From: an uncultured Chloroflexia bacterium
GTDB taxonomy: Bacteria; Chloroflexota; UBA6077; JACCZL01
Assembly (NCBI GenBank): GCA_963765765.1
Contig: CAVXYC010000009.1
Location: forward strand, 1 to 20,499
Reading direction: 5' to 3'
Length of the DNA stretch: 20,499 nucleotides
The position numbers and the translations under genes are program-made. Below the pieces are notes generated by a model. That model was not told the DNA's origin. It made no database searches and was given only the letters and a program-made list of their open reading frames with translations. How positions within the stretch are numbered: the stretch's first letter is position 1; each line of letters starts with the position of its first letter. This document shows positions 1 to 20,096 of this stretch, piece by piece.

Positions 1-1848
1 CGCTCGGCGCCATGACGGTGGCACGCAATGCGGATGGACGACTCCAGGTGTTCAGTCGCCTGGGACTCATGTCCAGCGGCGTAGTCTGGAGCATCGCTCA
101 GCAATCCGCTAACGGCGCTACCTGGGATGCCTGGAGCAATCTCGGCGTCGCCACCCGGCGGCGTATCGGCGCACCTGCTCGTCAGCGCACAAAACGCGGA
201 CGGTCGACTGGAGCTTTTTGCGCTGGGACAATCGGCCGAAGTCTGGCACACCTGGCAGCTCACCCCTTCGGATACCGCCTGGTCCGCCTGGGAGTCACTC
301 GGCTCGCCCGCGGGCACATTGATCATTCGCTTAGGAATTGGTCGAAACTCAGACGGAAGGCTGGAGCTATTCGGGCTCTCCACCGATGGTGAGCTCTGGA
401 ACATCTGGCAGACCGCGGCTAACGCTGGCTGGGATGCCTGGAACGCGCTCGGCTCTCCGGTCGGCGACCAACCTGGGTGTGTTGACGGTGGGCGAAAATG
501 CCGACGGTCGGTTGGAAGTCTTCGCTGTCGCGGACGGCGATGCCCTCTGGCACCTCTGGCAGGACCCCGCGTCCGCCACAGCGTGGAGCACCTGGGACAG
601 CCTCGGCACGCCTGGCTCGGGTTTTCTTGATGACCTGGCGGTCGCTCAGAACTCGGACGGCCGATTGGAAGTGTTTGCCGTTCTGAACGACGACGCGCTC
701 TGGCATATCTGGCAGGATCCAGCCTCGCCCAACTACTGGAGCGGCTGGGACTCGCTGGGCGGGGAGCCTGATGGCGCCGCCGCCGTGGCACGCCACCTCG
801 ATGGTCGGCTGGACGCCTTTGCCGTCGCTCGGGCGGCATCAGGCCCCAAGCCGCTTTACCATCGCGCCCAGACCGCACCCAATAGCGACTGGGGTCCAAA
901 TCCTGATTGGCAGCTTACCGCCCTCACCGCCAGCACCACTGCTTTATTCCGATGCTCAGACGGCTCCGTCTTTGCCCGCACGCAGACTGAGCTTCTGCGT
1001 AGCACCGATCAAGGCGATACCTGGACACCCATCAACTTGCCTCCCGGCGCGGGGAAGGTGGCAGTGGATGCCGCCGACTCCAACATCATCTACGCCGGCG
1101 GTACCGGTGGGCTGTTCAAAACGACCAATCAGGGATCCACCTGGAATCTCGTCTACACCGACTTGCCCCAGACCAAGGTCCTCGCCGTGGCGGTGAGCGA
1201 GGCAAATCACCTCATCGTTTACGCAGCGGTGAGCCCGACTGGCACCGATATCGATAATCTGCGTTCGTTGGACGGTGGCGCCATCTGGACGGGCATCGGC
1301 GGCCCGTTTCCCAGCGCCACCTGCATCTGGGGCGTCAATCTCCTCTTTCCACATCCGACGAATCAGATGCATGTATTCAAAGCGTCAAATTGCTACGCCG
1401 GTCGAGTCGTTCCTTCGGGCGATCCGCTGCAGCTCAGCACCGCCCAGGGTTCCGGCTGGGCCACCATCCTTCAGCAGTCCACCTTGTTTCCGTCGCGCAT
1501 GGTCGGTGGAAAAGGCATCGAGCCGACGCGCTTTTACGTGACCGCCCATCGTGGCGCCGCGCCGGGGGCGGGCGACTCTATGCCACCAAGGACAGTGGCG
1601 CCAACTGGTCGGTCGGCATCGACATTGCCAGCGGCCCAGCGATCTTCGGCCTCGAGTACGAGCCGAATTCGCCTCTGCGGGTGTATGCCGCCCTCACCAG
1701 TGGGGAAGCGCGCACGTCGTCTGACGCCGGCTTCTCCTGGACCCAGCTCGGATCCAGCGGCCTCGGCCGCGCCGAAGCGCTTCTCCGCAGCGGCTCGTAT
1801 TTGTTTCTGGCCAGCGATACGGGGGTGTGGAGGTACCCGTTGGCGTAG
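1..1848 (+). CDS. Tandem beta-propeller protein: PLL/PHL-type lectin-like repeats followed by an Asp-box (BNR) propeller; 5' end outside the window; split by three 1-nt indels
   Basis: Joining ORFs 12-392, 127-630, 338-1951 and 1390-1848 at ~147 (+G), ~466 (+G) and ~1566 (-G in a G run) gives one protein. It has six [AG]xN[AS]DGRL[EQ]xF...W..WQ...W..W..LG repeats, then six Asp-box-like motifs (STDQGDTW, TTNQGSTW, SLDGGAIW, STAQGSGW, TKDSGANW, SSDAGFSW), and ends ...LASDTGVWRYPLA-TAG at 1848. The frame is open back to position 3. Confidence 0.8.
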
Positions 1849-1916
1849 AGGCGAAGGGTTCCGGATTGTGCGTTTCGCCGTTCACATGGCATTGCACTGG
1901 GTCTCCCGCTCTGCAG

Positions 1917-1990
1917 TCGCAGCGAAGGATCTTCCCCGCCGGAGTGCTTGATACCGGTCGGAAGATCCTTCGCTGCGATCAGGATGACAG
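1917..1990. repeat. REP-like palindrome (GCAGCGAAGGATCT...AGATCCTTCGCTGCG.TCAGGATGAC type) between convergent genes; possible bidirectional terminator
   Basis: Perfect 19-bp inverted repeat, TCGCAGCGAAGGATCTTCC (1917-1935) / GGAAGATCCTTCGCTGCGA (1960-1978), followed by TCAGGATGACAG. Confidence 0.75.
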
Positions 1991-3840: not shown

Positions 3841-5034
3841 CTAGCGGAACAGCGCCTTATCGAAAATCTCGATGAAGTCGTTGCTGCGAGCGATCTGGTC
3901 ATCCGTGCGCTTGGACGGCTTGACCTGCTCTATCGGTGGCTGACCCGCTGGCGGCGGAGTACCGGGCAGCGCCGCGTACGAATTCTGGATGTCGACGACC
4001 ATTTTCTGGCCCTCTTCCGAGGTGATCCAGGAAACGAACATCTTGGCCGCGTCCTGGCCGGGCGCATCCTTGATCACACCGATGGTGCTCTCCTGGATGG
4101 ACGTACCGCCGTCGGTGAAATACACCACCTTGACCGGCGCAATCTTGGCCATGTCGAACAGCTCCGACGTGATCGTCACGGGGTAGAACAGCGCATACTC
4201 GCCGCGGGCGATCTGTGATGGCGCCGCGTCGCGGTCCCGCACGAACGTCGTCTCTTGCGACTTGAGACCGGCCAGCCACGAGTCGCCGAGCTGGACGTAG
4301 TTGATCGTGCCCACGTCGAGGCCGGGACCATTGCCGCGCGGATCCTCGAAGAGCAGTTTGCCCTTGCCCTTCCAGAACGGCTCCAGCAGCTCCTGGCGGG
4401 TCGAAGGAATCTTTTCGGCCGGCACCAGGTCCGTGTTGACAAACCCGCCAAAGAGGCTCACCCGATAAGGCCAGCGCGTCTTGCCATTGGTCAGGCCGGC
4501 GGGCGGAATCAGCGCCGCAGTCGGCGGACCCTCCCACTCGGTGAGGTCCCCCTGCTTCTCGAAGGTGGACATGGTCGTCTGGCCGTGAACCGCAAGGTTG
4601 GCGATCTGCTTGCCGCTGGCCTTCTCCGCGGCGAGGCGCTGGAGCATCTCCGGCCCCCGCAGATTCACCTTCTCGATCTGAATCTCTGGGTAGCGCTTGC
4701 GGAACTCCGGAATCATCGGGTCCCACTCGGGACCAACCCCACCGTAGATGACGACGTTTGTCTGCTTGGCCGCCTTGGCTTTCTCGTAGTAGCCATTGAT
4801 GACCGCCGAGACCTCAGCCGCGGATGGCCCGCCGCCGGTCTGTGCGGCCGCTGGAATACCGGGCAGCCCGGCCGCTGGTGATGCCGCGGCGCCCGGCGAT
4901 GCTGCCGCGCCTGGTGATGCCGCCGCGGCGGGCGCCGTGGTCGGCTTGGCCGGCGCAGCCGTGGGGCTGGCAGGCGCCGGTGTGCTGCACGCGACCGCAA
5001 GCAATGACGCGAGCAGAGTGAAAAGAACGCGCAT
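3841..5034 (-). CDS. ABC transporter substrate-binding lipoprotein (AfuA/Fe3+-thiamine-polyamine-like class II SBP)
   Basis: Lipobox LLAVA-C and a Pro/Ala/Thr tether, then AKAAKQTNVVIYG, RLAAEKASGK, LLEPFWKG, ARGEY and AAKMFVSWITSEEGQ, all characteristic of this SBP class. 397 aa, intact. Confidence 0.88.
   Translation of the reverse strand: MRVLFTLLASLLAVACSTPAPASPTAAPAKPTTAPAAAASPGAAASPGAAASPAAGLPGIPAAAQTGGGPSAAEVSAVINGYYEKAKAAKQTNVVIYGGVGPEWDPMIPEFRKRYPEIQIEKVNLRGPEMLQRLAAEKASGKQIANLAVHGQTTMSTFEKQGDLTEWEGPPTAALIPPAGLTNGKTRWPYRVSLFGGFVNTDLVPAEKIPSTRQELLEPFWKGKGKLLFEDPRGNGPGLDVGTINYVQLGDSWLAGLKSQETTFVRDRDAAPSQIARGEYALFYPVTITSELFDMAKIAPVKVVYFTDGGTSIQESTIGVIKDAPGQDAAKMFVSWITSEEGQKMVVDIQNSYAALPGTPPPAGQPPIEQVKPSKRTDDQIARSNDFIEIFDKALFR
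4877..4930 (-). repeat. Degenerate 18-bp tandem repeat encoding the (AAASPG)n linker of the SBP
   Basis: The protein reads AAAASPGAAASPGAAASP. The DNA units begin GGTGATGCC/GGCGATGCT/GGTGATGCC at 18-nt spacing. Confidence 0.7.
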
Positions 5035-5322
5035 TCCTGTGAAAAACCTCCGTCAGGTCCGGGTCCGGATTGCAAGGCAATCGGCCATCTGCCTGAGAAC
5101 GAAGAATAGTAACGGCTCGGGAATCGTGGCCACTTGGTGTGGTGAGTCCACATCTCGTCAAGACGAGAAATGGGGTGGGTATGGCACCCCTCGTTGAATC
5201 TATTCGCGGCCCCGCCATTCTGGGACTGCGGCGCAGAATCACACCCGAATCTGTCGGCCCAGTGGCGCTGGCGCCGCACCGCTATGCGCACGAGCGCTCA
5301 GTATCGCATCCACAGGGCACCT

Positions 5323-5890
5323 CTAATTCTCGGGCATTCTACCGATTATCTCGTGCCGAATTAGGTTTATGCCTCGCTGAAGGGAAATCTCTAACCCATC
5401 TAAATCTTGCAGCACCTCAGACAGATAACCATCGGCGAGTGCCAAGTGAGCACGTGGCAGCGGTGCGTCTGCGGCTCGTACATGGATATGCGGTCCCTTC
5501 TTGTATGAATGCCAAGGCTCCCCGTTCACGAGATCCTCGTCAGGATCACAGTGCAACGCAACGAATTCACTCGAGTCGGAGCGTGATTTCATTCGAAACA
5601 ATTGAAAATACGCGCGTTCGAGGGACCACTGGTGCGTATCATCGACGGGGTACCAGTCATCGAAGTATTGGCCAGAGAGTTGGGCGCAGTTCGTCTTGAA
5701 TCGCCAATCACGATACGATTCTTCGAGGTTTGGGACCATCGTGGGCCGCGACGACTACTGATCCGCCGCTAGGACCGCCGGTCCTTGTCGCACCGGCCCT
5801 CCCGACGCACGGGATACCTCACGTAGAAGTTGCCGAATTCTGCCGGGCCGGTCCAGCCAGCTGTCGATCAGTCATTTGGATCGTCGGCAT
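5323..5890 (-). CDS. Hypothetical protein (~188 aa if reconstructed) with HCDP...GPHIHV...AHL motifs, overlapping the 3' end of the methyltransferase
   Basis: ORF 5323-5739 looks protein-like but has no RBS. GGAGG-5 nt-ATG at 5890 overlaps the MTase end by 23 nt. Linking it to the ORF needs about three frame switches (~5857, ~5790, ~5725), so the 5' part is tentative. Confidence 0.6.
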
Positions 5891-8509
5891 CAACGCCTCC
5901 TAATCCAAGCAACCCTCGGTCCAGTCGCGAAATTCCATACAGATCCGAAGCCAAGTCGTCGATTTCCCGCTCCATGGCGATTGCGTGCGTCCCGGTTGAA
6001 TTGATTCTCGCATCGACCGCATCACACAGCCGCTGTGTGAGCGAAGGACTGCGACCGGGATCCGGAATTGGAACGTCCCGAAGAGTTTTTCCCTCCAGCA
6101 TCGAATAGCCGTGGCTATACTTGTGTGAATGTTGGCTCAAGTACCAAAACGCCACGGATGAATTCAGTAAGCCTAACAAGTACAGTAACAATTCCTCGTC
6201 CGCACCGATGCCCTTTGTTGTCAAATATGTGCTTCGAGTGACAACGTAGGTTCCGGTCCGATCAAATCCGAATCTCGGAGCAAGCACCAAGTGTGGACTT
6301 ACCAGCTTCGGGCGAAGCATGCTTCGAGGGGAGCGAGGCCAAGCTGGTTGCCACCATGCCACGTTTCCCCGCGAAACCGCTGAGCGTTTCTCAAGTTCCC
6401 CTCGATGTTCCTGAAGATAAGACCATGTCGCTGAGAATTCAGTGCGAAGTCGCTCCTCTTGAACGAGTTCACCGTCGATGAAAGGGTAGAAGATCGACTG
6501 TTCCGTCGCTTCGGGGACGCGGTAACGCAGCATAGACCTATCTGCAAGTAAGGGACGAAACAATTCACTGTCGAGCGAGTCGGACACCGAGTCTGGGACA
6601 ATGAAAACTTTGTCTGCGCCAGTGATAGCTCCTTGTCGGATTTCAGCGAAGTTCGCCAGGGTTGGTAGAGTTCGCAAGCCTCTTCTAATCCGTGAAGCAG
6701 TCTCTGGAAGCAGGATCCACTCTTCAGACTCGAATTCTTGTTGATCCAGATCGTAAATACTGTAGAAGTCGCCAGTGACTCGCTTTCCTTCGAGATAGTC
6801 CTCAAGTGCAAGCCCGGGCAGATCACGTACGCTGACAATCGTTGCGGGAAGCGAACTGACTGACTCATCGACACGCTTCTGAAACACGAGCAGTATCACG
6901 TAGATGTCTACGCTTTCGAAGACGGGGATGCTGGAGAGATCGACCAAACAGTGAATCCTGGCCTCATTGGCAAGTTTTTGGCGAATGCTCTTAGCGCCAT
7001 TTGCCAATAAGAAGCTGTGAGGCAGTACTAACATTCCAAAACCCCCCGGGCGAAGGAGGTCTCAGAGCGGCTTTCACGAACGCCGCGTAAAGGTCCACTC
7101 TACCCTTGCCGTCATCGCCGAGGTATGTTGACACGACGTCACGTAACTCTTGTGATTGTCGTTCAATGCTCACGAATGGCGGATTCACGACGACCGCTTC
7201 GAATGTCCCCAGGATGTTTGGGTTCTCAATCAGATAGTGAAAGAGTTCGTGTTGATGGACGTTTAGTGTTTCCGGATCGTGCCTGTCAATGCCAGATGCA
7301 ACAGACTTAGGGAGAGCCGAGATGCTGAGACGGCGCTTGGATCCACGTCGATACCATAACAATTGTTGAAGGCGTGGAAAATTGAATCCGATGTGACACC
7401 GTCTTGAATCGGGTCGCACTGAAGTTCGAGTATGTTTCGGAGAAATATTCCGGTGCCCAGGCCGGATCAATAGTTGCCATATTTCTAAATATTGAAGGAG
7501 GTAGTTGATCGCGGATGATCCTGGCGAAAAATCTGGATATGAACTCAGGTGTGTAGACAACGCCTTGAGACCTGTTCGCTATTTCATTTGGAATAGGTGG
7601 GAAGAATGATAGCTGGGGAGAAAACTCGTCTTCGTAGTGGAGCAGTGAAGAATAATGCTCGTATATTCTTCCTAAGGCGTGTTTCGATAGTAATGAAAAG
7701 TTGTATTCATACGGTGCGAATGGATTGCGGTAGAAATCGAGTATTAACTCGTCTATCAGTGATGCTTGACAAGAATCAAATTGCATCAATGCCTGAATGG
7801 ATATGAAGTCTTGAGATGACAAGCCAAGCTGTTGAACGCGTTTAGCAATGATTCGCGATAGTTGCCTGTCTAAATCCGACGTTGATCGCCATGACATGGC
7901 GAGACTTTCAGAATTGATGCTCCGTTGGTCTTCGATTGTTCTAATGAAGATTAATGAGTTAAAGAGATTTGAGAGACCGAAGTTGTCAATCTTACCCGGT
8001 GACTCGGATGACAGAACCCTCTTCCATTTGGAAATTAATCGTACTAAAGCGTCTTCAATATTCGGAAGAAGTGGAACTTTAGGAGGTATGAGAGATTCTT
8101 GAACGTTAAATTGTTGTAGAGAATCAATTGTTGTGCGGGAGAGTGGTATTTTGCTTACGATTGCGGGTTGGATTCTGTTGTTGCATAACGTGGCTCCGTC
8201 AGTTTCAATGCATAGATGCCAGTCGACTAGATTGTTATAGGAAATCGAGAGAAGGCGATTATATGTCGATATGTCGAAGTCATAGGTCCGCACGGATTCA
8301 TTGATGAAACTGAGGACCGCCGATGATTGGAGTCCGTGTTCTACAACAAGATGTGCCCGCGCTATGTCCTTCGAAGGATTGTGGTCGAGTAGTGGGTAGC
8401 TGGGTCGCCAGCCGAGGTAGCGCGCGAAATCCCGTAGGGCGCGTCTCGCATCGACTTCATGGGAGGATGGAGATGCTAAGGTGAGGATGCTGTCGTAGGC
8501 GTCAGGCAT
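5868..8509 (-). CDS. Type IIG/Eco57I-like gamma-class N6-adenine DNA methyltransferase with C-terminal TaqI-like target recognition domain (~880 aa); three 1-nt indels
   Basis: Motif X QGVVYTPEFI; motif I restored as IDPA(C)GTGIFL by +1 nt at ~7458; YGIDVD; +1 nt at ~7277; motif IV VVVNPPFV; RVDLYAAF; -1 nt at ~7063 giving LLRPGGFGMLVLP; then QGAITGADKVF and LLYLLGLLNSS...LRDVPIP, typical of TaqI_C. Confidence 0.88.
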
Positions 8510-8745: not shown

Positions 8746-9379
8746 ATGGCTTACCTTGCGCTGGTTCGGCATGGGCAGTCGGAGTGGAACGCGCTCGGGC
8801 TCTGGACGGGGCTGCGCGATATCGAGCTCAACGACATCGGCATTGAAGAGGCGCGGCAGGCGGCGGAGTCGCTGCGCGGGATCACCTTTGACGTGGCGTA
8901 CACCTCGGCGCTGAAGCGGGCGCATCAGACGCTGGAGAAGATCCTGGACACGCTGGGGCAAAAAGGGCATCCCGACCACTGCCGACGCGGCGATCAACGA
9001 GCGCGACTACGGCGATCTGACGGCCAAGAACAAGTGGGACGTGCAGAAGGAATACGGCGACGAGCAGTTCATGAAGTGGCGCCGCAGCTGGGACTACCCG
9101 GTGCCCAACGGCGAGACGCTCAAGGACGTGCACGATCGCGTGGCGCCGTACTACGACGCCAACATCCTGCCGCAGCTCAAGGCCGGCAAGAACGTCATCA
9201 TCGCCGCGCACGGCAACAGCCTGCGCGCGCTGGTGAAGCACCTGGAGAACATCCCCGAGACGGAGATTCCGTCCCTGGAGATCGGCACCGGCGAGGTCTA
9301 CCTCTACGAGGTCGACAAGGACGGCAAGATCACCAACAAGGAGATCCGGGTGGCGAACCCGCTGGCGGGGAAGGTCTAG
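8746..9379 (+). CDS. gpmA: 2,3-bisphosphoglycerate-dependent phosphoglycerate mutase (210 aa), one 1-nt indel
   Basis: LVRHGQSEWN, SALKRA, INERDYGDL, WRRSWD, GETLKD and AAHGNSLRAL motifs. One extra A in the A5 run at 8960-8964 splits the frame. Very strong GC3 codon bias. Confidence 0.93.
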
Positions 9380-15620: not shown

Positions 15621-15716
15621 GCGACGACCCGCGCCCGCTCTACGGAGGGTCCTCGCCCGGCAAGTTTCGTGCGATTTGCACGGCCACACCAAGAATGAAC
15701 GCAAGGCGGCACACGA

Positions 15717-18366
15717 ATGCGGGCGACGTATCGAGTCCAGCTACGGAAAGAGTTCGGGTTCAATGACGTTGCCGCGCTAGCGGACTATTTGGCCGAGCTT
15801 GGGGTGAGCCATCTCTACAGCTCGCCATACCTGCAGGCCGCGGCGGGTAGCACCCATGGTTATGACGTCATAGATCACAGTCGCGTCAATGCCGAGCTGG
15901 GTGGCGCCGAGGCGCATGCGGCGATGTGCTCCGCTCTTGGCGCATGCGGCCTTGGTCAAGTACTTGACATCGTCCCGAATCATATGGCGATCGGTGGCCG
16001 TGAGAATGTGTGGTGGTGGGATATTCTCGAGAACGGTCCGTCCAGTCGCTATGCGGCTTATTTCGACGTTGAATGGGACCCGCCAGAGGCGCGTCTACGA
16101 AATACCGTCCTTCTGCCCGGTATTGGGCGATCGATACGGACGCGTTCTGGAGGCGGGTGATCTCACTGTCGTTCGCAGCGGCGGCCGGTTTGAGGTTCGG
16201 TACTTCGATCACGTTTTTCCGATCAGACCACGCTCCCTCGTCACGCTCTTGGCTCGGGCTGCTGACCGATGCGGCTCCAGAGAGCTGGCGTTTATTGCAG
16301 ATGCACTTGAGGCTCTTCCACTGACGACGGCGACCGATCGACCAAGCATCTCGCGGCGGCATCGGGATAAAGAGGTCTTACTTACCCATCTCGAGCAGCT
16401 GACGCTAGACAATCCTCTGGTCGCGCGCACGATTGACGCTGAGGTTACAGAGCTCAATCGCGATCTGGACGCACTTGATGGGCTTCTAAGCGATCAGAAC
16501 TATCGACTCGCCTTCTGGCGAACGGCGCAACGCGATCTCGGCTATCGGCGATTCTTTGATGTCAACAGTTTGATCGGGCTGCGGGCCGAGCTCGAGGACG
16601 TCTTCGAAGAGACCCATCACCTGGTGCTCGATTGGCTCCGACGGGGCGTTATCGACGGGTTGCGCATCGATCATCCAGATGGACTGCGGGATCCAGAGCA
16701 ATACCTACAGCGACTGCGGCAGGCCGCGCCAGATGGCTGGCTCGTCGTTGAAAAGATTCTCGAGAGTGACGAGCACCTTCGAGAGTCGTGGCCGGTCGAT
16801 GGGACGGTTGGATACGAGTTTCTCAATCGGGTGAACGGCATCTTCGTCGACCCCGACGGCGAAGAGCCGCTTACAGAGCTCTATTGGCGCTTCACGGGCG
16901 AATCAATCGACTTTCCAGACATCGTTCGGCAGTCAAAGCTGCTCGTCCTGCGGGAGATTCTGGGAAGTGACCTGGGACGCCTAACCGCCATGCTCGTGGA
17001 CGTCTCTGAGCAGCACCGGGCATATCGCGATTACACGCGCGCTGAGTTTTACGACACACTTCGAGAGCTTATTGTCAACCTGCCGGTTTATCGCACATAC
17101 GTCCGGCCCGAGCATCGCGAGGCTCAGGGCGACGACGTTCGATACCTGACTGAGGCGGCCGAGCGAGCCAGTCAGTTGCGGCCAGACCTCGATCCCGATC
17201 TGCTTGCCTTTCTGCGTGATCTGCTTCTTCTTCGCGAGCCGGGCGAGCTCGAAACCGAGCTCGCGATGCGAGTACAGCAGTTGAGCGGCGCGGTAATGGC
17301 AAAGGGCGTCGAAGACACCGCCTTCTACACGTTCAATCGCTTGATCTCACTCAATGAGGTCGGTGGTAACCCGGAGCGATTCGGGATCTCCGTTGACGAG
17401 TACCACCAGGCTTGTATCGAAACTCAGGCTCGATGGCCGGCAACGATGCTGACAACGTCTACTCACGATACAAAACGCGGTGAGGACGTCCGCGTCAGAA
17501 TTAACGTGCTATCTGAGATCCCCGACCGTTGGGCTGATGCAGTGACTCGATGGTCGACAATGAATGAGCGATATCGACACCGCGACCTGGTTGACCGAAA
17601 CGCCGAATATCTCATTTACCAGACACTCGTGGGCGCCTGGCCCATCGATTCTGCCCGCCTTCGCGAATATCTGGAGAAAGCGGCCCGGGAGGCCAAGAGC
17701 CATACGTCCTGGACAAGTCCGAACGCGGAGTACGAAGCCGCTCTACAGGACTTTGCAGAGGATGCTCTCAATAACAGAGAGTTCATCGATGATCTGGTGA
17801 AGTTCGTCGATTCGATTCTCGAGCCGTCGCGCGTCACGTCAGTCGCGCAGTTGTTGCTCAAGTTAACGGCGCCCGGAATACCCGACATTTACCAGGGGAC
17901 GGAGCTCTGGGACCTCAGTCTGGTAGACCCCGACAACCGCCGACCTATCGACTATTCTCACCGCCGCGCTCTGCTGACGAAATTGGAAGGGCTGTCCCCT
18001 GAGCAAGTGTGGCAGGAAGCCGAGAGCGGCTTGCCAAAGCTGTGGGTCCTGCAGCGCACGCTGGGGCTGCGCAGGAACCATCTCGAGGCATTCGGGCCGC
18101 GCGGCAGCTACGTGCCACTTACGGCACAGGGGGCACGCAGTAAGCACGTTGTGGCGTCGAGCCGTGGCGACATAATCGTCACAGTCGTTCCGCGACTAAC
18201 AACTCGGTTGGACGGAGATTGGCATGGGACGCAACTCGAGCTGCCGGGGAATTACTGGCGGAATGTGTTGACAGGAGAAGAAATCACGGGGTCGAGAGTT
18301 GAGCTGGACAGGTTATTGCGGCGCTTTCCGGTCGCGCTCCTGGAGCGACTGGGGGAGCCAGCTTGA
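15717..18366 (+). CDS. treY: Malto-oligosyltrehalose synthase (GH13), 882 aa, one 1-nt indel
   Basis: RATYRVQL, GSTHGYDV, LDIVPNHM, YRRFFDV, GLRIDHPDGL, VEKIL, TSTHDTKR and SLVDPDNRRP motifs. One extra C at 16116-16118 splits LLP-VLGDRYG. Confidence 0.95.
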
Positions 18367-20096
18367 GCCTATTTCGTGTGTGGGCGCCCGCGGCCAATTC
18401 TGTTGAGCTTGTTACACCGAACAGTCGAACCAGGATGCGCGCGGCAGAACAGGGCTGGTGGGCTCTGGACATGTCTGCAACCGACTACGCGTTCAGTCTC
18501 GACGGTGGTCCGCCACTGCCCGACCCTCGATCTGGATGGCAACCGTCAGGCGTGCACGGTATGTCACGGCGCGTTGATCATGAGCTGTTTGATTGGACGG
18601 ATGAAGGATGGCAAGCGCCGCCACTGGGCTCCGCCATCATCTACGAGATGCACGTTGGGACGTTTACGCCTGAAGGAACGTTCGACTCGGCAATCGAACG
18701 ACTGGGCCATCTTCAACAACTTGGGGTGACCCACGTTGAGATCATGCCAGTGGCCGAGTTTCCCGGGGCTCGCGGGTGGGGATATGACGGTGTAGCGCTG
18801 TACGCGCCGCACCATGCCTACGGTGGTCCTGATGCGCTGAAACGCCTGGTCAATGCCTGCCATGAGCAGGGGCTAGCGGTACTGCTCGATGTGGTCTACA
18901 ACCACCTGGGGCCAGACGGAAATTACCTTGGCCAGTTTGGTCCGTACTTTACAGACAAGTACGCCACCCCATGGGGCCAGGCCGTCAATCTAGACGGCGA
19001 GGCAAGCGACGAAGTCCGCCGATTTTTCATCGACAACGCGCTGATGTGGCTACGCGAGTATCACTTCGACGGGCTCCGGCTTGATGCCGTGCACGCCATT
19101 TTCGATACATCCGCCGTGAACTTCCTGGAGGAGCTTGCCCTTGAGGTTTCCGAGCTGGAAATCAAGCTTGGTCGACATTTAGTGCTCGTCGCCGAGAGCG
19201 ATCGCAATGATCCGCGGCTACTCTGGGCGCGTGAGCGCGGCGGCTATGGCCTCACCGCGCAATGGAGCGACGATTTTCATCATGCCGTGCATGCCGTGCT
19301 TACCGGCGAGCGGAATGGCTACTACACGGATTTCGGTCGGATTGAGCACGTTGCCCGGGCGTTAGAGCACGGCTTCGTATACGACGGACGGTATTCAGAC
19401 TTCCGTAAGAAGCACCACGGTCGACCCGCCGAAGGAGTCTCCGGCGATCGATTCATAAGCTTCATGCAGAACCACGATCAGATCGGCAATCGCGCACGTG
19501 GAGAGCGCAGTACGCATCTGATGAGCGTCGGTAGGCTTAAGGTGGGCGCGGCGCTCCTACTTACGTCCCCCTTCACCCCGATGCTCTTTCAGGGGGAAGA
19601 ATGGGCCGCGAGTGCACCGTTCCTGTACTTCACCGATCACCAAGATGCGAGCCTCGCCAGGGCCGTGACTGAAGGTCGACGGACAGAGTTCGCGGCTTTC
19701 AGCTGGGACATGAACTCAATTCCGGATCCACAGGCTGAGACCTCATTTCTCGATTCCAAGTTGAGCTGGGACGAAATCTCAAATGAGACCCACGCAGAGA
19801 TGCTGGAGTGGCATCGGCAGCTCATCGAGCTCCGGCGCCGTTCTCCTGACCTGAGCAACGGACGTATGGATGAGACGCGGCTGACGTATGAAGAGGACCA
19901 GGCGTGGATTGTGATTCAGCGCGGATCCATTATGGTGGCGAGCAATCTTTCCAGTGTCGTTCAGGAGATCCATCTTCCCTGCGACGCATCGGAAATTCTC
20001 CAGACCTCAGACGTTCAAACGCGATTGTCCGGGAACAGCGTCAGACTCTCTCCAGACTCAGTAGCGATATTGCGCTCACCGACTGACGATTACTGA
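18363..20096 (+). CDS. treZ: Malto-oligosyltrehalose trehalohydrolase (GH13)
   Basis: FRVWAP, YEMHVGTFT, WGYDGV, DVVYNH, GLRLDAVHA, QWSDDFHH, QNHDQIGNR and LFQGEEW motifs. The TTG start overlaps the treY stop (TTGA). Confidence 0.96.
   Translation: MSLFRVWAPAANSVELVTPNSRTRMRAAEQGWWALDMSATDYAFSLDGGPPLPDPRSGWQPSGVHGMSRRVDHELFDWTDEGWQAPPLGSAIIYEMHVGTFTPEGTFDSAIERLGHLQQLGVTHVEIMPVAEFPGARGWGYDGVALYAPHHAYGGPDALKRLVNACHEQGLAVLLDVVYNHLGPDGNYLGQFGPYFTDKYATPWGQAVNLDGEASDEVRRFFIDNALMWLREYHFDGLRLDAVHAIFDTSAVNFLEELALEVSELEIKLGRHLVLVAESDRNDPRLLWARERGGYGLTAQWSDDFHHAVHAVLTGERNGYYTDFGRIEHVARALEHGFVYDGRYSDFRKKHHGRPAEGVSGDRFISFMQNHDQIGNRARGERSTHLMSVGRLKVGAALLLTSPFTPMLFQGEEWAASAPFLYFTDHQDASLARAVTEGRRTEFAAFSWDMNSIPDPQAETSFLDSKLSWDEISNETHAEMLEWHRQLIELRRRSPDLSNGRMDETRLTYEEDQAWIVIQRGSIMVASNLSSVVQEIHLPCDASEILQTSDVQTRLSGNSVRLSPDSVAILRSPTDDY

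Follow-up and report, generated by a model that had tools for sequence, protein, structure and literature searches.

In restriction-modification (R-M) of Type III, where the system is made up of Mod and Res, the methylase subunit gives recognition to a separate cutter and the methylase gene comes first. Type IIG/IIL enzymes such as MmeI, BpuSI and DrdV are single chains without a partner, in which an endonuclease-like N-terminal domain, a helical connector, a gamma-class N6-adenine methylase and a target recognition domain (TRD) follow each other, and CamA-type enzymes are orphan methylases. Small proteins that act beside a larger or neutralising partner have been described elsewhere. DUF2290 is the partner protein in the anti-T7 system Helicase+DUF2290, and in the part of the supplement that treats it HHpred ties it to DUF6516/TumE with 87.8% probability (Rousset et al. 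2022, PMC9122126). The sections on TumE in a second report describe DUF6516 as the TumE toxin, which inhibits translation, as an alpha+beta protein with a seven-stranded antiparallel sheet and no match in the PDB, and as a predicted ester hydrolase that is in most cases encoded by the downstream member of a bicistron (Durairaj et al. 2023, PMC10584680). Here we analyse a pair of genes, encoding a DNA methylase and a small protein with a cluster of histidines, that lies at 5323-8509 on the minus strand of a 20,499-nt stretch from an uncultured Chloroflexia bacterium (contig CAVXYC010000009.1; the whole stretch is called the window below). The pair is a conserved, translationally coupled and self-contained two-gene cassette that occurs across phyla.

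The cassette was traced in a scan of one genome per species with the pattern Ex[LVI][ACS]LHCDP[END], taken from the small protein. The scan matched 25 stretches, of which 14 proved to encode true small-protein relatives, and because the pattern is narrow these 14 loci are a lower bound. A first, sequence-only reading of the window, made without database searches, had staked its case on the homologues of the two genes being neighbours elsewhere, and in 13 of the 14 loci (two of them cut by contig ends) a member of the methylase family indeed lies directly upstream on the same strand. The remaining locus (L014, 592-987) has only a truncated small gene (residues 62-129), with the methylase absent, and reads as a second example, beside the window, of decay of the cassette. 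In an all-against-all clustering of 547 open reading frames (ORFs), the methylase and the small protein were the only families common to more than three loci. In 11 of the 13 loci the stop of the methylase and the start of the small gene either share 1, 4 or 8 nt or stand 2-12 nt apart, and the outlying spacing in L009 and L011 is probably due to a first-start rule that placed the start too early. The two proteins also co-vary in pairwise identity (Spearman 0.63-0.82), with no methylase domain singled out when domains were compared one by one. As softer evidence, three small-protein and three methylase matches lie on contigs of equal size (5063, 5402 and 3622 nt). The hosts belong to six named phyla, Pseudomonadota, Thermodesulfobacteriota, Chloroflexota, Myxococcota, Acidobacteriota and Verrucomicrobiota, and the trees, for which 10 of the 14 loci were used, are mostly unresolved and show no grouping by phylum. 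By their E values against independent relatives (1e-88 for the N-terminal piece of the methylase and 9e-30 for the small ORF), the matches of both genes are far above chance, and both proteins are under purifying selection across phyla, in a cassette that probably moves horizontally.

In the window the methylase occupies four overlapping reading-frame pieces on the minus strand (8509 -> 5868), which comparison with relatives shows to be a single gene. Residues 1-872 of an 873-aa relative (P0004) are collinear with 8509..5901 at 44% identity (tblastn; frames -3, -2, -1, -2), and three 1-nt shifts can be placed. The features of the gene, with predicted folds from AlphaFold2 (AF2) models, are as follows.

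5868-8509, minus strand: methyltransferase gene of Type IIG architecture, about 880 codons, with three 1-nt indels; stop TGA at 5870-5868 (tblastn to P0004).
8120-8509, minus strand: predicted N-terminal restriction-endonuclease-like fold, residues 1-130, with E57-H58-G59 (AF2, Foldseek).
7466-8119, minus strand: predicted helical connector, residues ~131-348, highly conserved (FNAxIFxRAxED, SKHALSRIYEHY; AF2, consensus).
7440-7468, minus strand: S-adenosylmethionine (SAM)-binding motif I, DPA(C)GTGIFL, split by frameshift 1 (family consensus DPACGSGIFL).
7459/7458, minus strand: frameshift 1, which leaves the Cys codon of DPA-C-GTG one base short (DNA against family consensus).
7278-7280, minus strand: frameshift 2, a base missing at ~7279 between LTGT and DPETLNV (consensus LTGxLPxxLNV).
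7174-7185, minus strand: catalytic motif IV, NPPF (translation of piece 7578-6994; Pfam Eco57I E 6.4e-6).
7062, minus strand: frameshift 3, an extra A between AAL and DLLRPGG (consensus GLExLKPGG).
6066-6482, minus strand: TaqI_C-type TRD (PF12950, residues 194-332 of piece 7061-5871).

Pfam places Eco57I, N6_Mtase and TaqI_C domains both on the window pieces and on intact relatives. In the latter, N6_Mtase, Eco57I and MmeI_Mtase fall at residues ~315-549 and TaqI_C at ~700-820, and no Pfam domain is found in residues 1-310. The TaqI_C score (PF12950) is 24.6 bits in the window piece and 25.8 in P0004, just below the gathering cut-off of 26.5, and 26.8 in another relative (P0039), just above it; the alignments of M.BseCI and CamA also extend as far as residue ~861 of P0004. 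Motifs I and IV, by which gamma-class N6-adenine methyltransferases are recognised, are both present, motif I being frameshifted in the window copy, and on these motifs and domains the enzyme is classed as a gamma-class adenine methyltransferase of the Eco57I/TaqI_C type. The N-terminal piece has 363 relatives of 701-2000 aa at E<=1e-3, and the best 120 of these 363 are all 712-908 aa long, carry both PF02384 and PF07669 and are 36-45% identical. The closest solved sequences to P0004 are M.BseCI (7qw5, E 1.7e-26) and CamA (7lni, E 5.5e-25), matched over residues ~313-864. Positions 232-374 of the PADLOC profile REase_MTase_IIG (PDLC03604) match the window piece in its connector (E 4.8e-10), and the profile matches the methylase/TRD half of intact relatives with E 2e-37 to 5e-42.

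The model of the first 348 residues of the window methylase (pLDDT 83.9) predicts a helix, three strands, a helix and three strands in residues 1-125, followed by an all-helical domain. Its best Foldseek match in the PDB is the Type IIG/L enzyme DrdV (7lo5, E 3.5e-3, probability 0.93), with weaker matches to BsaXI, PacII, Hjc and a putative restriction-endonuclease domain; there were no PDB matches at E<=1e-3, and a profile of the N-terminal domain gave none of significance against PDB sequences (best E 0.43; RPB5 E 0.9). It is the domain matches, the fold search with the N-terminal domain and PDLC03604 together that lead us to regard the domain order as Type IIG-like. The catalytic lysine of the PD...(D/E)xK site of Type IIG enzymes is missing throughout the 119 relatives compared: no lysine is conserved in residues 30-125, the maximum being 19 of 119 at position 114. 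Seven residues are invariant in all 119 (E57, G59, A64, F68, Y91, N92 and W97), H58, D96 and H98 each occur in 114 of them, and H53 does in 103. The sequence-only reading had called the methylase nuclease-dead and Type IIG-like. The second part of this description agrees with the domain order, and the first with the missing lysine; that the domain is nuclease-dead is a reasonable inference from the sequences, although the domain is under strong constraint and might have a non-canonical active site. Where the D...ExK motif would fall on the strands is likewise something that we infer from the model.

The small gene lies directly downstream of the methylase gene, with its start codon and ribosome-binding site within the terminal codons of the methylase, and its features in the window are the following.

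5323-5890, minus strand: gene of the small His-cluster protein, ancestrally ~188 codons; ATG at 5890 (tblastn, family hidden Markov model (HMM)).
5896-5900, minus strand: Shine-Dalgarno GGAGG (5900-5896) of the small gene, in the coding end of the methylase (read from the DNA).
5851-5857, minus strand: frameshift 4 (+1), in which the N-terminal part of the small gene gains a base (consensus MxxIxLxxxxLxxRGxxVRxLL).
5757-5759, minus strand: in-frame TAG in a variable loop of the small gene (tblastn, frames).
5446-5553, minus strand: His-cluster core, with HCDP at 5553-5542, GPHIH at 5496-5482 and AH at 5451-5446 (DNA, family alignment).

The ATG at 5890 is out of frame with the aligned body of the gene, and the sole intact ORF is 5739-5323, of 138 aa as against 177-191 aa in relatives. 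Residues 8-182 of one relative (P0002) align to 5868..5338, straight across the TAG at 5759-5757 (tblastn), and positions 52-183 of the family HMM match the window gene with E 1.6e-53. An exhaustive HMMER search with the 138-aa query found 401 representative clusters at E<=1e-3, 241 of them at E<=1e-10; the 150 listed of the 401 are mostly 175-200 aa long. The family motifs are YFExW, LHCDP, YKRGPHLH and PxPxAHxAL. H134 and H148 are present in 173 of 173 members, H113 and H136 in 172 of 173 and E76 in 171 of 172, and Y74, W78, F63, P116 and K130 are near-invariant. All four histidines are kept in the window copy, and E76 is replaced by D. Mean identity of the core across phyla is 0.41. The AF2 model of a relative (P0124; pLDDT 92.5, pTM 0.89) combines some eight strands in an antiparallel sheet with short helices and, at the C terminus, a long one, and places the histidines on three consecutive strands (108-114, 134-137 and 147-150), where the cluster of four may form a shared metal or catalytic site. 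We note that in a Chloroflexia locus (L003, 8001-8684) the small protein is 227 aa long, with an insert of ~35 residues between HCDP and GPHxH. The insert splits the HMM match (positions 1-128 and 120-182), and the inter-His loop therefore tolerates large inserts.

The window small gene has no match in Pfam, NCBIfam or PADLOC, and neither of two intact relatives (P0124 and P0125) has a match in Pfam. No Pfam family was matched by more than two of 60 members at E<=5, and no NCBIfam family by more than one of 68; a word-index search with a 60-sequence profile returned 29 proteins, none with a Pfam domain. As such, the small protein appears to belong to no family in Pfam or NCBIfam. A His-Me/HNH finger, which would be expected from the layout of the motifs, was supported by neither the fold search nor the secondary structure. 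The pair as a whole matches no named system in PADLOC, in agreement with the sequence-only reading, which had proposed it as a candidate undescribed module, and no described equivalent of a methylase with such a small protein was found in literature searches.

The surroundings of the locus in the window were annotated by a Pfam scan of 62 of the 67 stop-to-stop ORFs of at least 100 aa, the other five being those of the locus, which were scanned separately, and by an NCBIfam scan of 26 of the window ORFs. These scans turned up no gene of the HsdR/S, Res, BREX or DISARM kinds within the window. G+C content (GC) is 0.42-0.57 in 5001-8500 and 0.59-0.69 in the remaining windows along the stretch, which would be a local sign of horizontal origin. 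The layout proposed from the sequence alone is thus borne out within the window: one gamma-class methyltransferase of ~880 aa with its own TRD once the indels are repaired, a gene of ~188 aa whose GGAGG and ATG lie in the last codons of the methylase, an AT-richer block around both, and none of the listed R-M, BREX or DISARM genes alongside. The adjoining genes encode a solute-binding protein (3844-5052) and, from ~8746, gpmA, and those further away oxidoreductases and treY/treZ. Repeats around the island are limited to short two-copy matches, with no att-like flanks. A promoter scan gave 0 sites against 3.0 expected, and terminator-like sites numbered 3 against 3.3 expected. At 5172-5190 (minus strand), ~130 nt past the stop of the small gene, a GC-rich hairpin with a T-rich tail could be the terminator of the operon, although such sites are no more frequent in the region than in shuffles. 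Elsewhere in the window, a long ORF at 335-1948 (plus strand) has only a weak match to the F510_1955 glycosylhydrolase, and its highest-GC codon position switches near 1550-1600 (within 1000-1900), which may mark a frameshift or a gene boundary. ARAGORN also calls a tRNA-Ala (CGC) at 16139-16216 (plus strand), within treY and beside its frameshift, which is probably a false positive.

Five lesions fall within the 3,187 nt of the cassette, four 1-nt indels and one TAG; none of the three methylase indels lies in a long homopolymer, and the TAG goes back to a substitution. The sequence-only reading understated this decay, as the small gene is itself broken by the +1 shift and the TAG, and the window copy looks non-functional. 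Other genes of the window are also affected. The gpmA gene (8746-9376, plus strand) is split at a GGGGCAAAAAGGG run near 8950-8965, its frames covering profile positions 4-78 and 73-203, which suggests either an assembly error at the homopolymer or a pseudogene. The treY gene (15699-18363, plus strand) is split near 16115-16125 at a CCCGG stretch (TIGR02401 positions 2-138 and 132-837), and treZ (18303-20093, plus strand), downstream of it, is intact. The flank genes open to an end-to-end check against curated profiles amount to 8,783 nt and hold 2 lesions, and relative to this baseline lesion density is ~7x higher in the island. In a conditional binomial test p is 0.017 when all five lesions are counted and 0.047 when only the frameshifts are, values that are limited by the choice of checkable genes. 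A frame plot of GC at third codon positions was too noisy at the GC content of the window to count frameshifts. It is thus probable, as far as the letters of the DNA can tell, that the cassette in the window was acquired horizontally and has since decayed to a non-functional copy.

The flanks of the cassette in other genomes, annotated by Pfam on 76 of 83 flank ORFs, vary between loci, and most of their genes are of the housekeeping kind, such as recA, tRNA synthetases and EF-G. Five locus groups have mobile or conflict genes close to the cassette.

L002, flank: MqsA, a HI1420-type antidote and ParA (Pfam).
L003, 12683-15127, plus strand: GmrSD Type IV restriction enzyme, beside an integrase (Pfam).
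L005, flank: RelE/HTH and RHS (Pfam).
L007/L008, flank: Type III-like Res/Mod pair, HNH, methylase-helicase and group II intron (Pfam).
L011, 8717-11179, minus strand: AAA_12 helicase fused to MTES_1575 and WGR (Pfam).

L007 and L008 are Chloroflexota metagenome-assembled genomes that share the cassette and its flanks. At 2311-4065 of L007, the ORF of a group II intron (reverse transcriptase, maturase, HNH) splits a gene for a DUF6094-methylase/helicase that is whole in L008 (1202-4603).

The reading that we prefer, to which we would give a probability of roughly 0.4, is that the window holds a decayed copy of a widespread, self-contained cassette that works by R-M logic, with the methylase as the recognition subunit and the small protein as the hydrolytic one. 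The methylase would mark host copies of the target sequence and supply DNA recognition, and the small protein would be a harmful, nuclease-like subunit. This subunit would be held and aimed by the methylase, probably through its exapted N-terminal domain, and unmodified incoming DNA would be attacked as the outcome. The scheme draws on the conserved pairing, the Type IIG-like build of the methylase, the four-histidine cluster and the weak match of some small-protein members to a Type II restriction-enzyme profile described below. Physical association of the two proteins, hydrolytic activity and a role in defence are all presumed in it, and so is the part of effector for the small protein; the part of a self/non-self or anti-RM sensor, which the sequence-only reading had suggested for the methylase, would likewise be a presumption. 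Several results weigh against it. Mean identity of the TRD is 0.44 as against 0.45-0.50 in the rest of the methylase, and such equal conservation of the TRD would be unusual for families that diversify in specificity. In Foldseek the model of the small protein found no match at E<=1e-3 in the PDB (best 1.7e-2, TM 0.18-0.27) or in BFVD (best E 1.9e-2), and its profile gave noise against PDB sequences (best E 0.025, to ribosomal S17). By tblastn the small protein had no match at E<=1 in 72,556 plasmids and only chance-level matches (E>=1) in 50,697 phage records, and the methylase found on plasmids only distant methylase cores of 21-27% identity; as the family was not found on plasmids or phages, mobility of the cassette is not directly shown. 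Since gpmA and treY are frameshifted as well, some of the lesions in the cassette may be assembly errors. In addition, the N-terminal domain is under strong constraint and could itself still cut.

This last point leads to a different account of the pair, in which the large protein is a complete Type IIG enzyme that cuts by a non-canonical site in its N-terminal domain, and the small protein is an accessory that might regulate it, act as a metal chaperone, or serve in assembly or immunity. Such a site is conceivable because the domain is so strongly conserved: E57, D96 and the histidines at 53, 58 and 98 are the residues that might form it, variant PD-(D/E)xK sites without the lysine are known, and the fold search with the domain points to DrdV. 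However, the set of His, Glu and Asp in the small protein shows stricter conservation than one would ask of a passive accessory, and no Type IIG enzyme with such a partner was found in literature searches, and we regard this account as improbable. An ordinary Type II pair, in which the small protein recognises and cuts its own sites as a free-standing restriction endonuclease with the methylase as cognate, is also unlikely, if less so. An order of methylase then nuclease with overlapping genes is frequent in such systems, restriction enzymes of the size of the small protein exist, and the methylase core is nearest to M.BseCI, which is a Type IIP methylase. The PADLOC profile REase_II (PDLC03556) weakly matches 4 of 150 small-protein members (E 2e-4 to 2e-2), always with the His core against profile positions ~437-510 of 549, and PtuB, whose function is given as unknown in PADLOC and which we take to be HNH-type, matches one member (E 0.018). 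In contrast, the cognate methylases always carry the conserved N-terminal module of ~310 aa that is absent from M.BseCI and CamA, and the core of the small protein is conserved across phyla to a degree that differs from the fast divergence typical of restriction enzymes; moreover, no known nuclease fold was found by Foldseek in the PDB or BFVD, and no NCBIfam family, of restriction enzymes or otherwise, was matched by more than one of the 68 members.

A toxin-antitoxin or abortive-infection system would explain other features of the pair. Here the small protein would be a toxin like TumE or DUF2290, perhaps directed at RNA or translation, and neutralised by the methylase, and a phage that disturbs the methylase, for example by an anti-restriction protein, would free the toxin, methylation being secondary or housekeeping. 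In the ESM Atlas the small protein lies nearest to unnamed clusters (0.96), followed by a partly DUF2290-annotated cluster at 0.91, into which 15 of the 30 named matches fall and in which PF10053 is found on 17% of members, and by a TumE (PF20126) cluster at 0.83. The HHpred link between DUF2290 and TumE cited above, the bicistronic coupling of the pair, and the agreement of the small-protein model and gene position with the general description of TumE in the sections of PMC10584680 that concern it all fit such an account, and the DUF2290 sequences given in the supplement of PMC9122126 show a motif, RYD ... HP..H, that by eye only resembles HCDP ... GPH.H of the small protein and as such is a lead. 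However, these language-model scores are likewise leads only, none of 60 small-protein members matches PF10053 or PF20126 at E<=5 (very weak matches may be hidden by the HMMER filters), and no DUF2290-type PADLOC match was seen in 150 members. An enzyme of 880 aa with catalytic motifs intact across the family would also be a costly antitoxin, and we consider this account, too, to have a small chance of being right. Least plausible of all, to the point of being very improbable, is a role outside defence, with an epigenetic or regulatory methylase and a small metal-binding partner that serves host physiology. The mostly housekeeping flanks and the orphan nature of CamA-type relatives would suit it; the patchy spread over six phyla that does not follow taxonomy, the GC content foreign to the host in the window, the decay both there and in L014, and the toxin-antitoxin and restriction genes near the cassette in five locus groups argue against it.

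If an intact pair defends cells, it would be a compact two-gene addition to the R-M repertoire with a new small effector fold, and would provide a function for a family of several hundred clusters that is unnamed in databases. It would also be an example of a separate subunit replacing the function of a Type IIG nuclease domain, and might tie the DUF2290 protein of Helicase+DUF2290 and the TumE toxins to one mechanism. Tentatively, and with more doubt than hope, the small protein may be a new hydrolytic effector fold with distant ties to DUF2290 and TumE, one of a superfamily whose members are plugged onto partners as different as a helicase, a small antitoxin and a methylase derived from Type IIG, the former nuclease domain of this methylase having become a dock or switch. 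Were this true, the cassette would be an undescribed immune system that bridges R-M and toxin-antitoxin logic in at least six phyla.

Among described systems, Type IIG/IIL enzymes have the same order of domains as that predicted for the cassette methylase. They differ from it in that the lysine of D...ExK is absent from all 119 of its relatives, the DrdV match falling short of E<=1e-3, and in that they act as single chains, whereas the cassette has an obligate, translationally coupled small gene. M.BseCI and CamA, monomeric gamma-class enzymes of the Type II or orphan kind, are the closest solved relatives and have the TaqI_C TRD in common with it; they are ~580 aa long, lack the N-terminal module, and to our knowledge have no such small partner. 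PglX of BREX and DrmMI of DISARM have related Eco57I-type cores, with weak matches in PADLOC and NCBIfam: the BREX/DISARM-type models of NCBIfam score 11-47 bits where their cut-offs are 400-900 (BREX-2 PglX, 46.7 against 400). The companion genes (PglZ, BrxC/L; DrmA/B/C) were found neither in the window nor in the 14 loci by Pfam/NCBIfam scans and clustering, and because of these low scores and absent companions the methylase is not PglX or DrmMI. Type III systems offer an analogy only, as the cassette has no helicase or ATPase and its partner, of 185 aa, no motor domain. With Helicase+DUF2290 and TumE-TumA, as these are described in the relevant parts of PMC9122126 and PMC10584680, the cassette shares a small alpha+beta protein without a PDB match beside a DNA-handling or neutralising partner, and with TumE-TumA the usual place of the toxin gene downstream of that partner. 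The Atlas similarity and the His motif point the same way, and the partner there is a helicase or a small antitoxin in place of the methylase here; with no HMM match in 60 members, a relation of the small protein to DUF2290/TumE is a lead. Across PADLOC, Pfam, NCBIfam and the literature searched, the pair is best read as an undescribed R-M-like cassette, which combines a methylase of Type IIG-like build with a small partner from a family that has no name in Pfam or NCBIfam.

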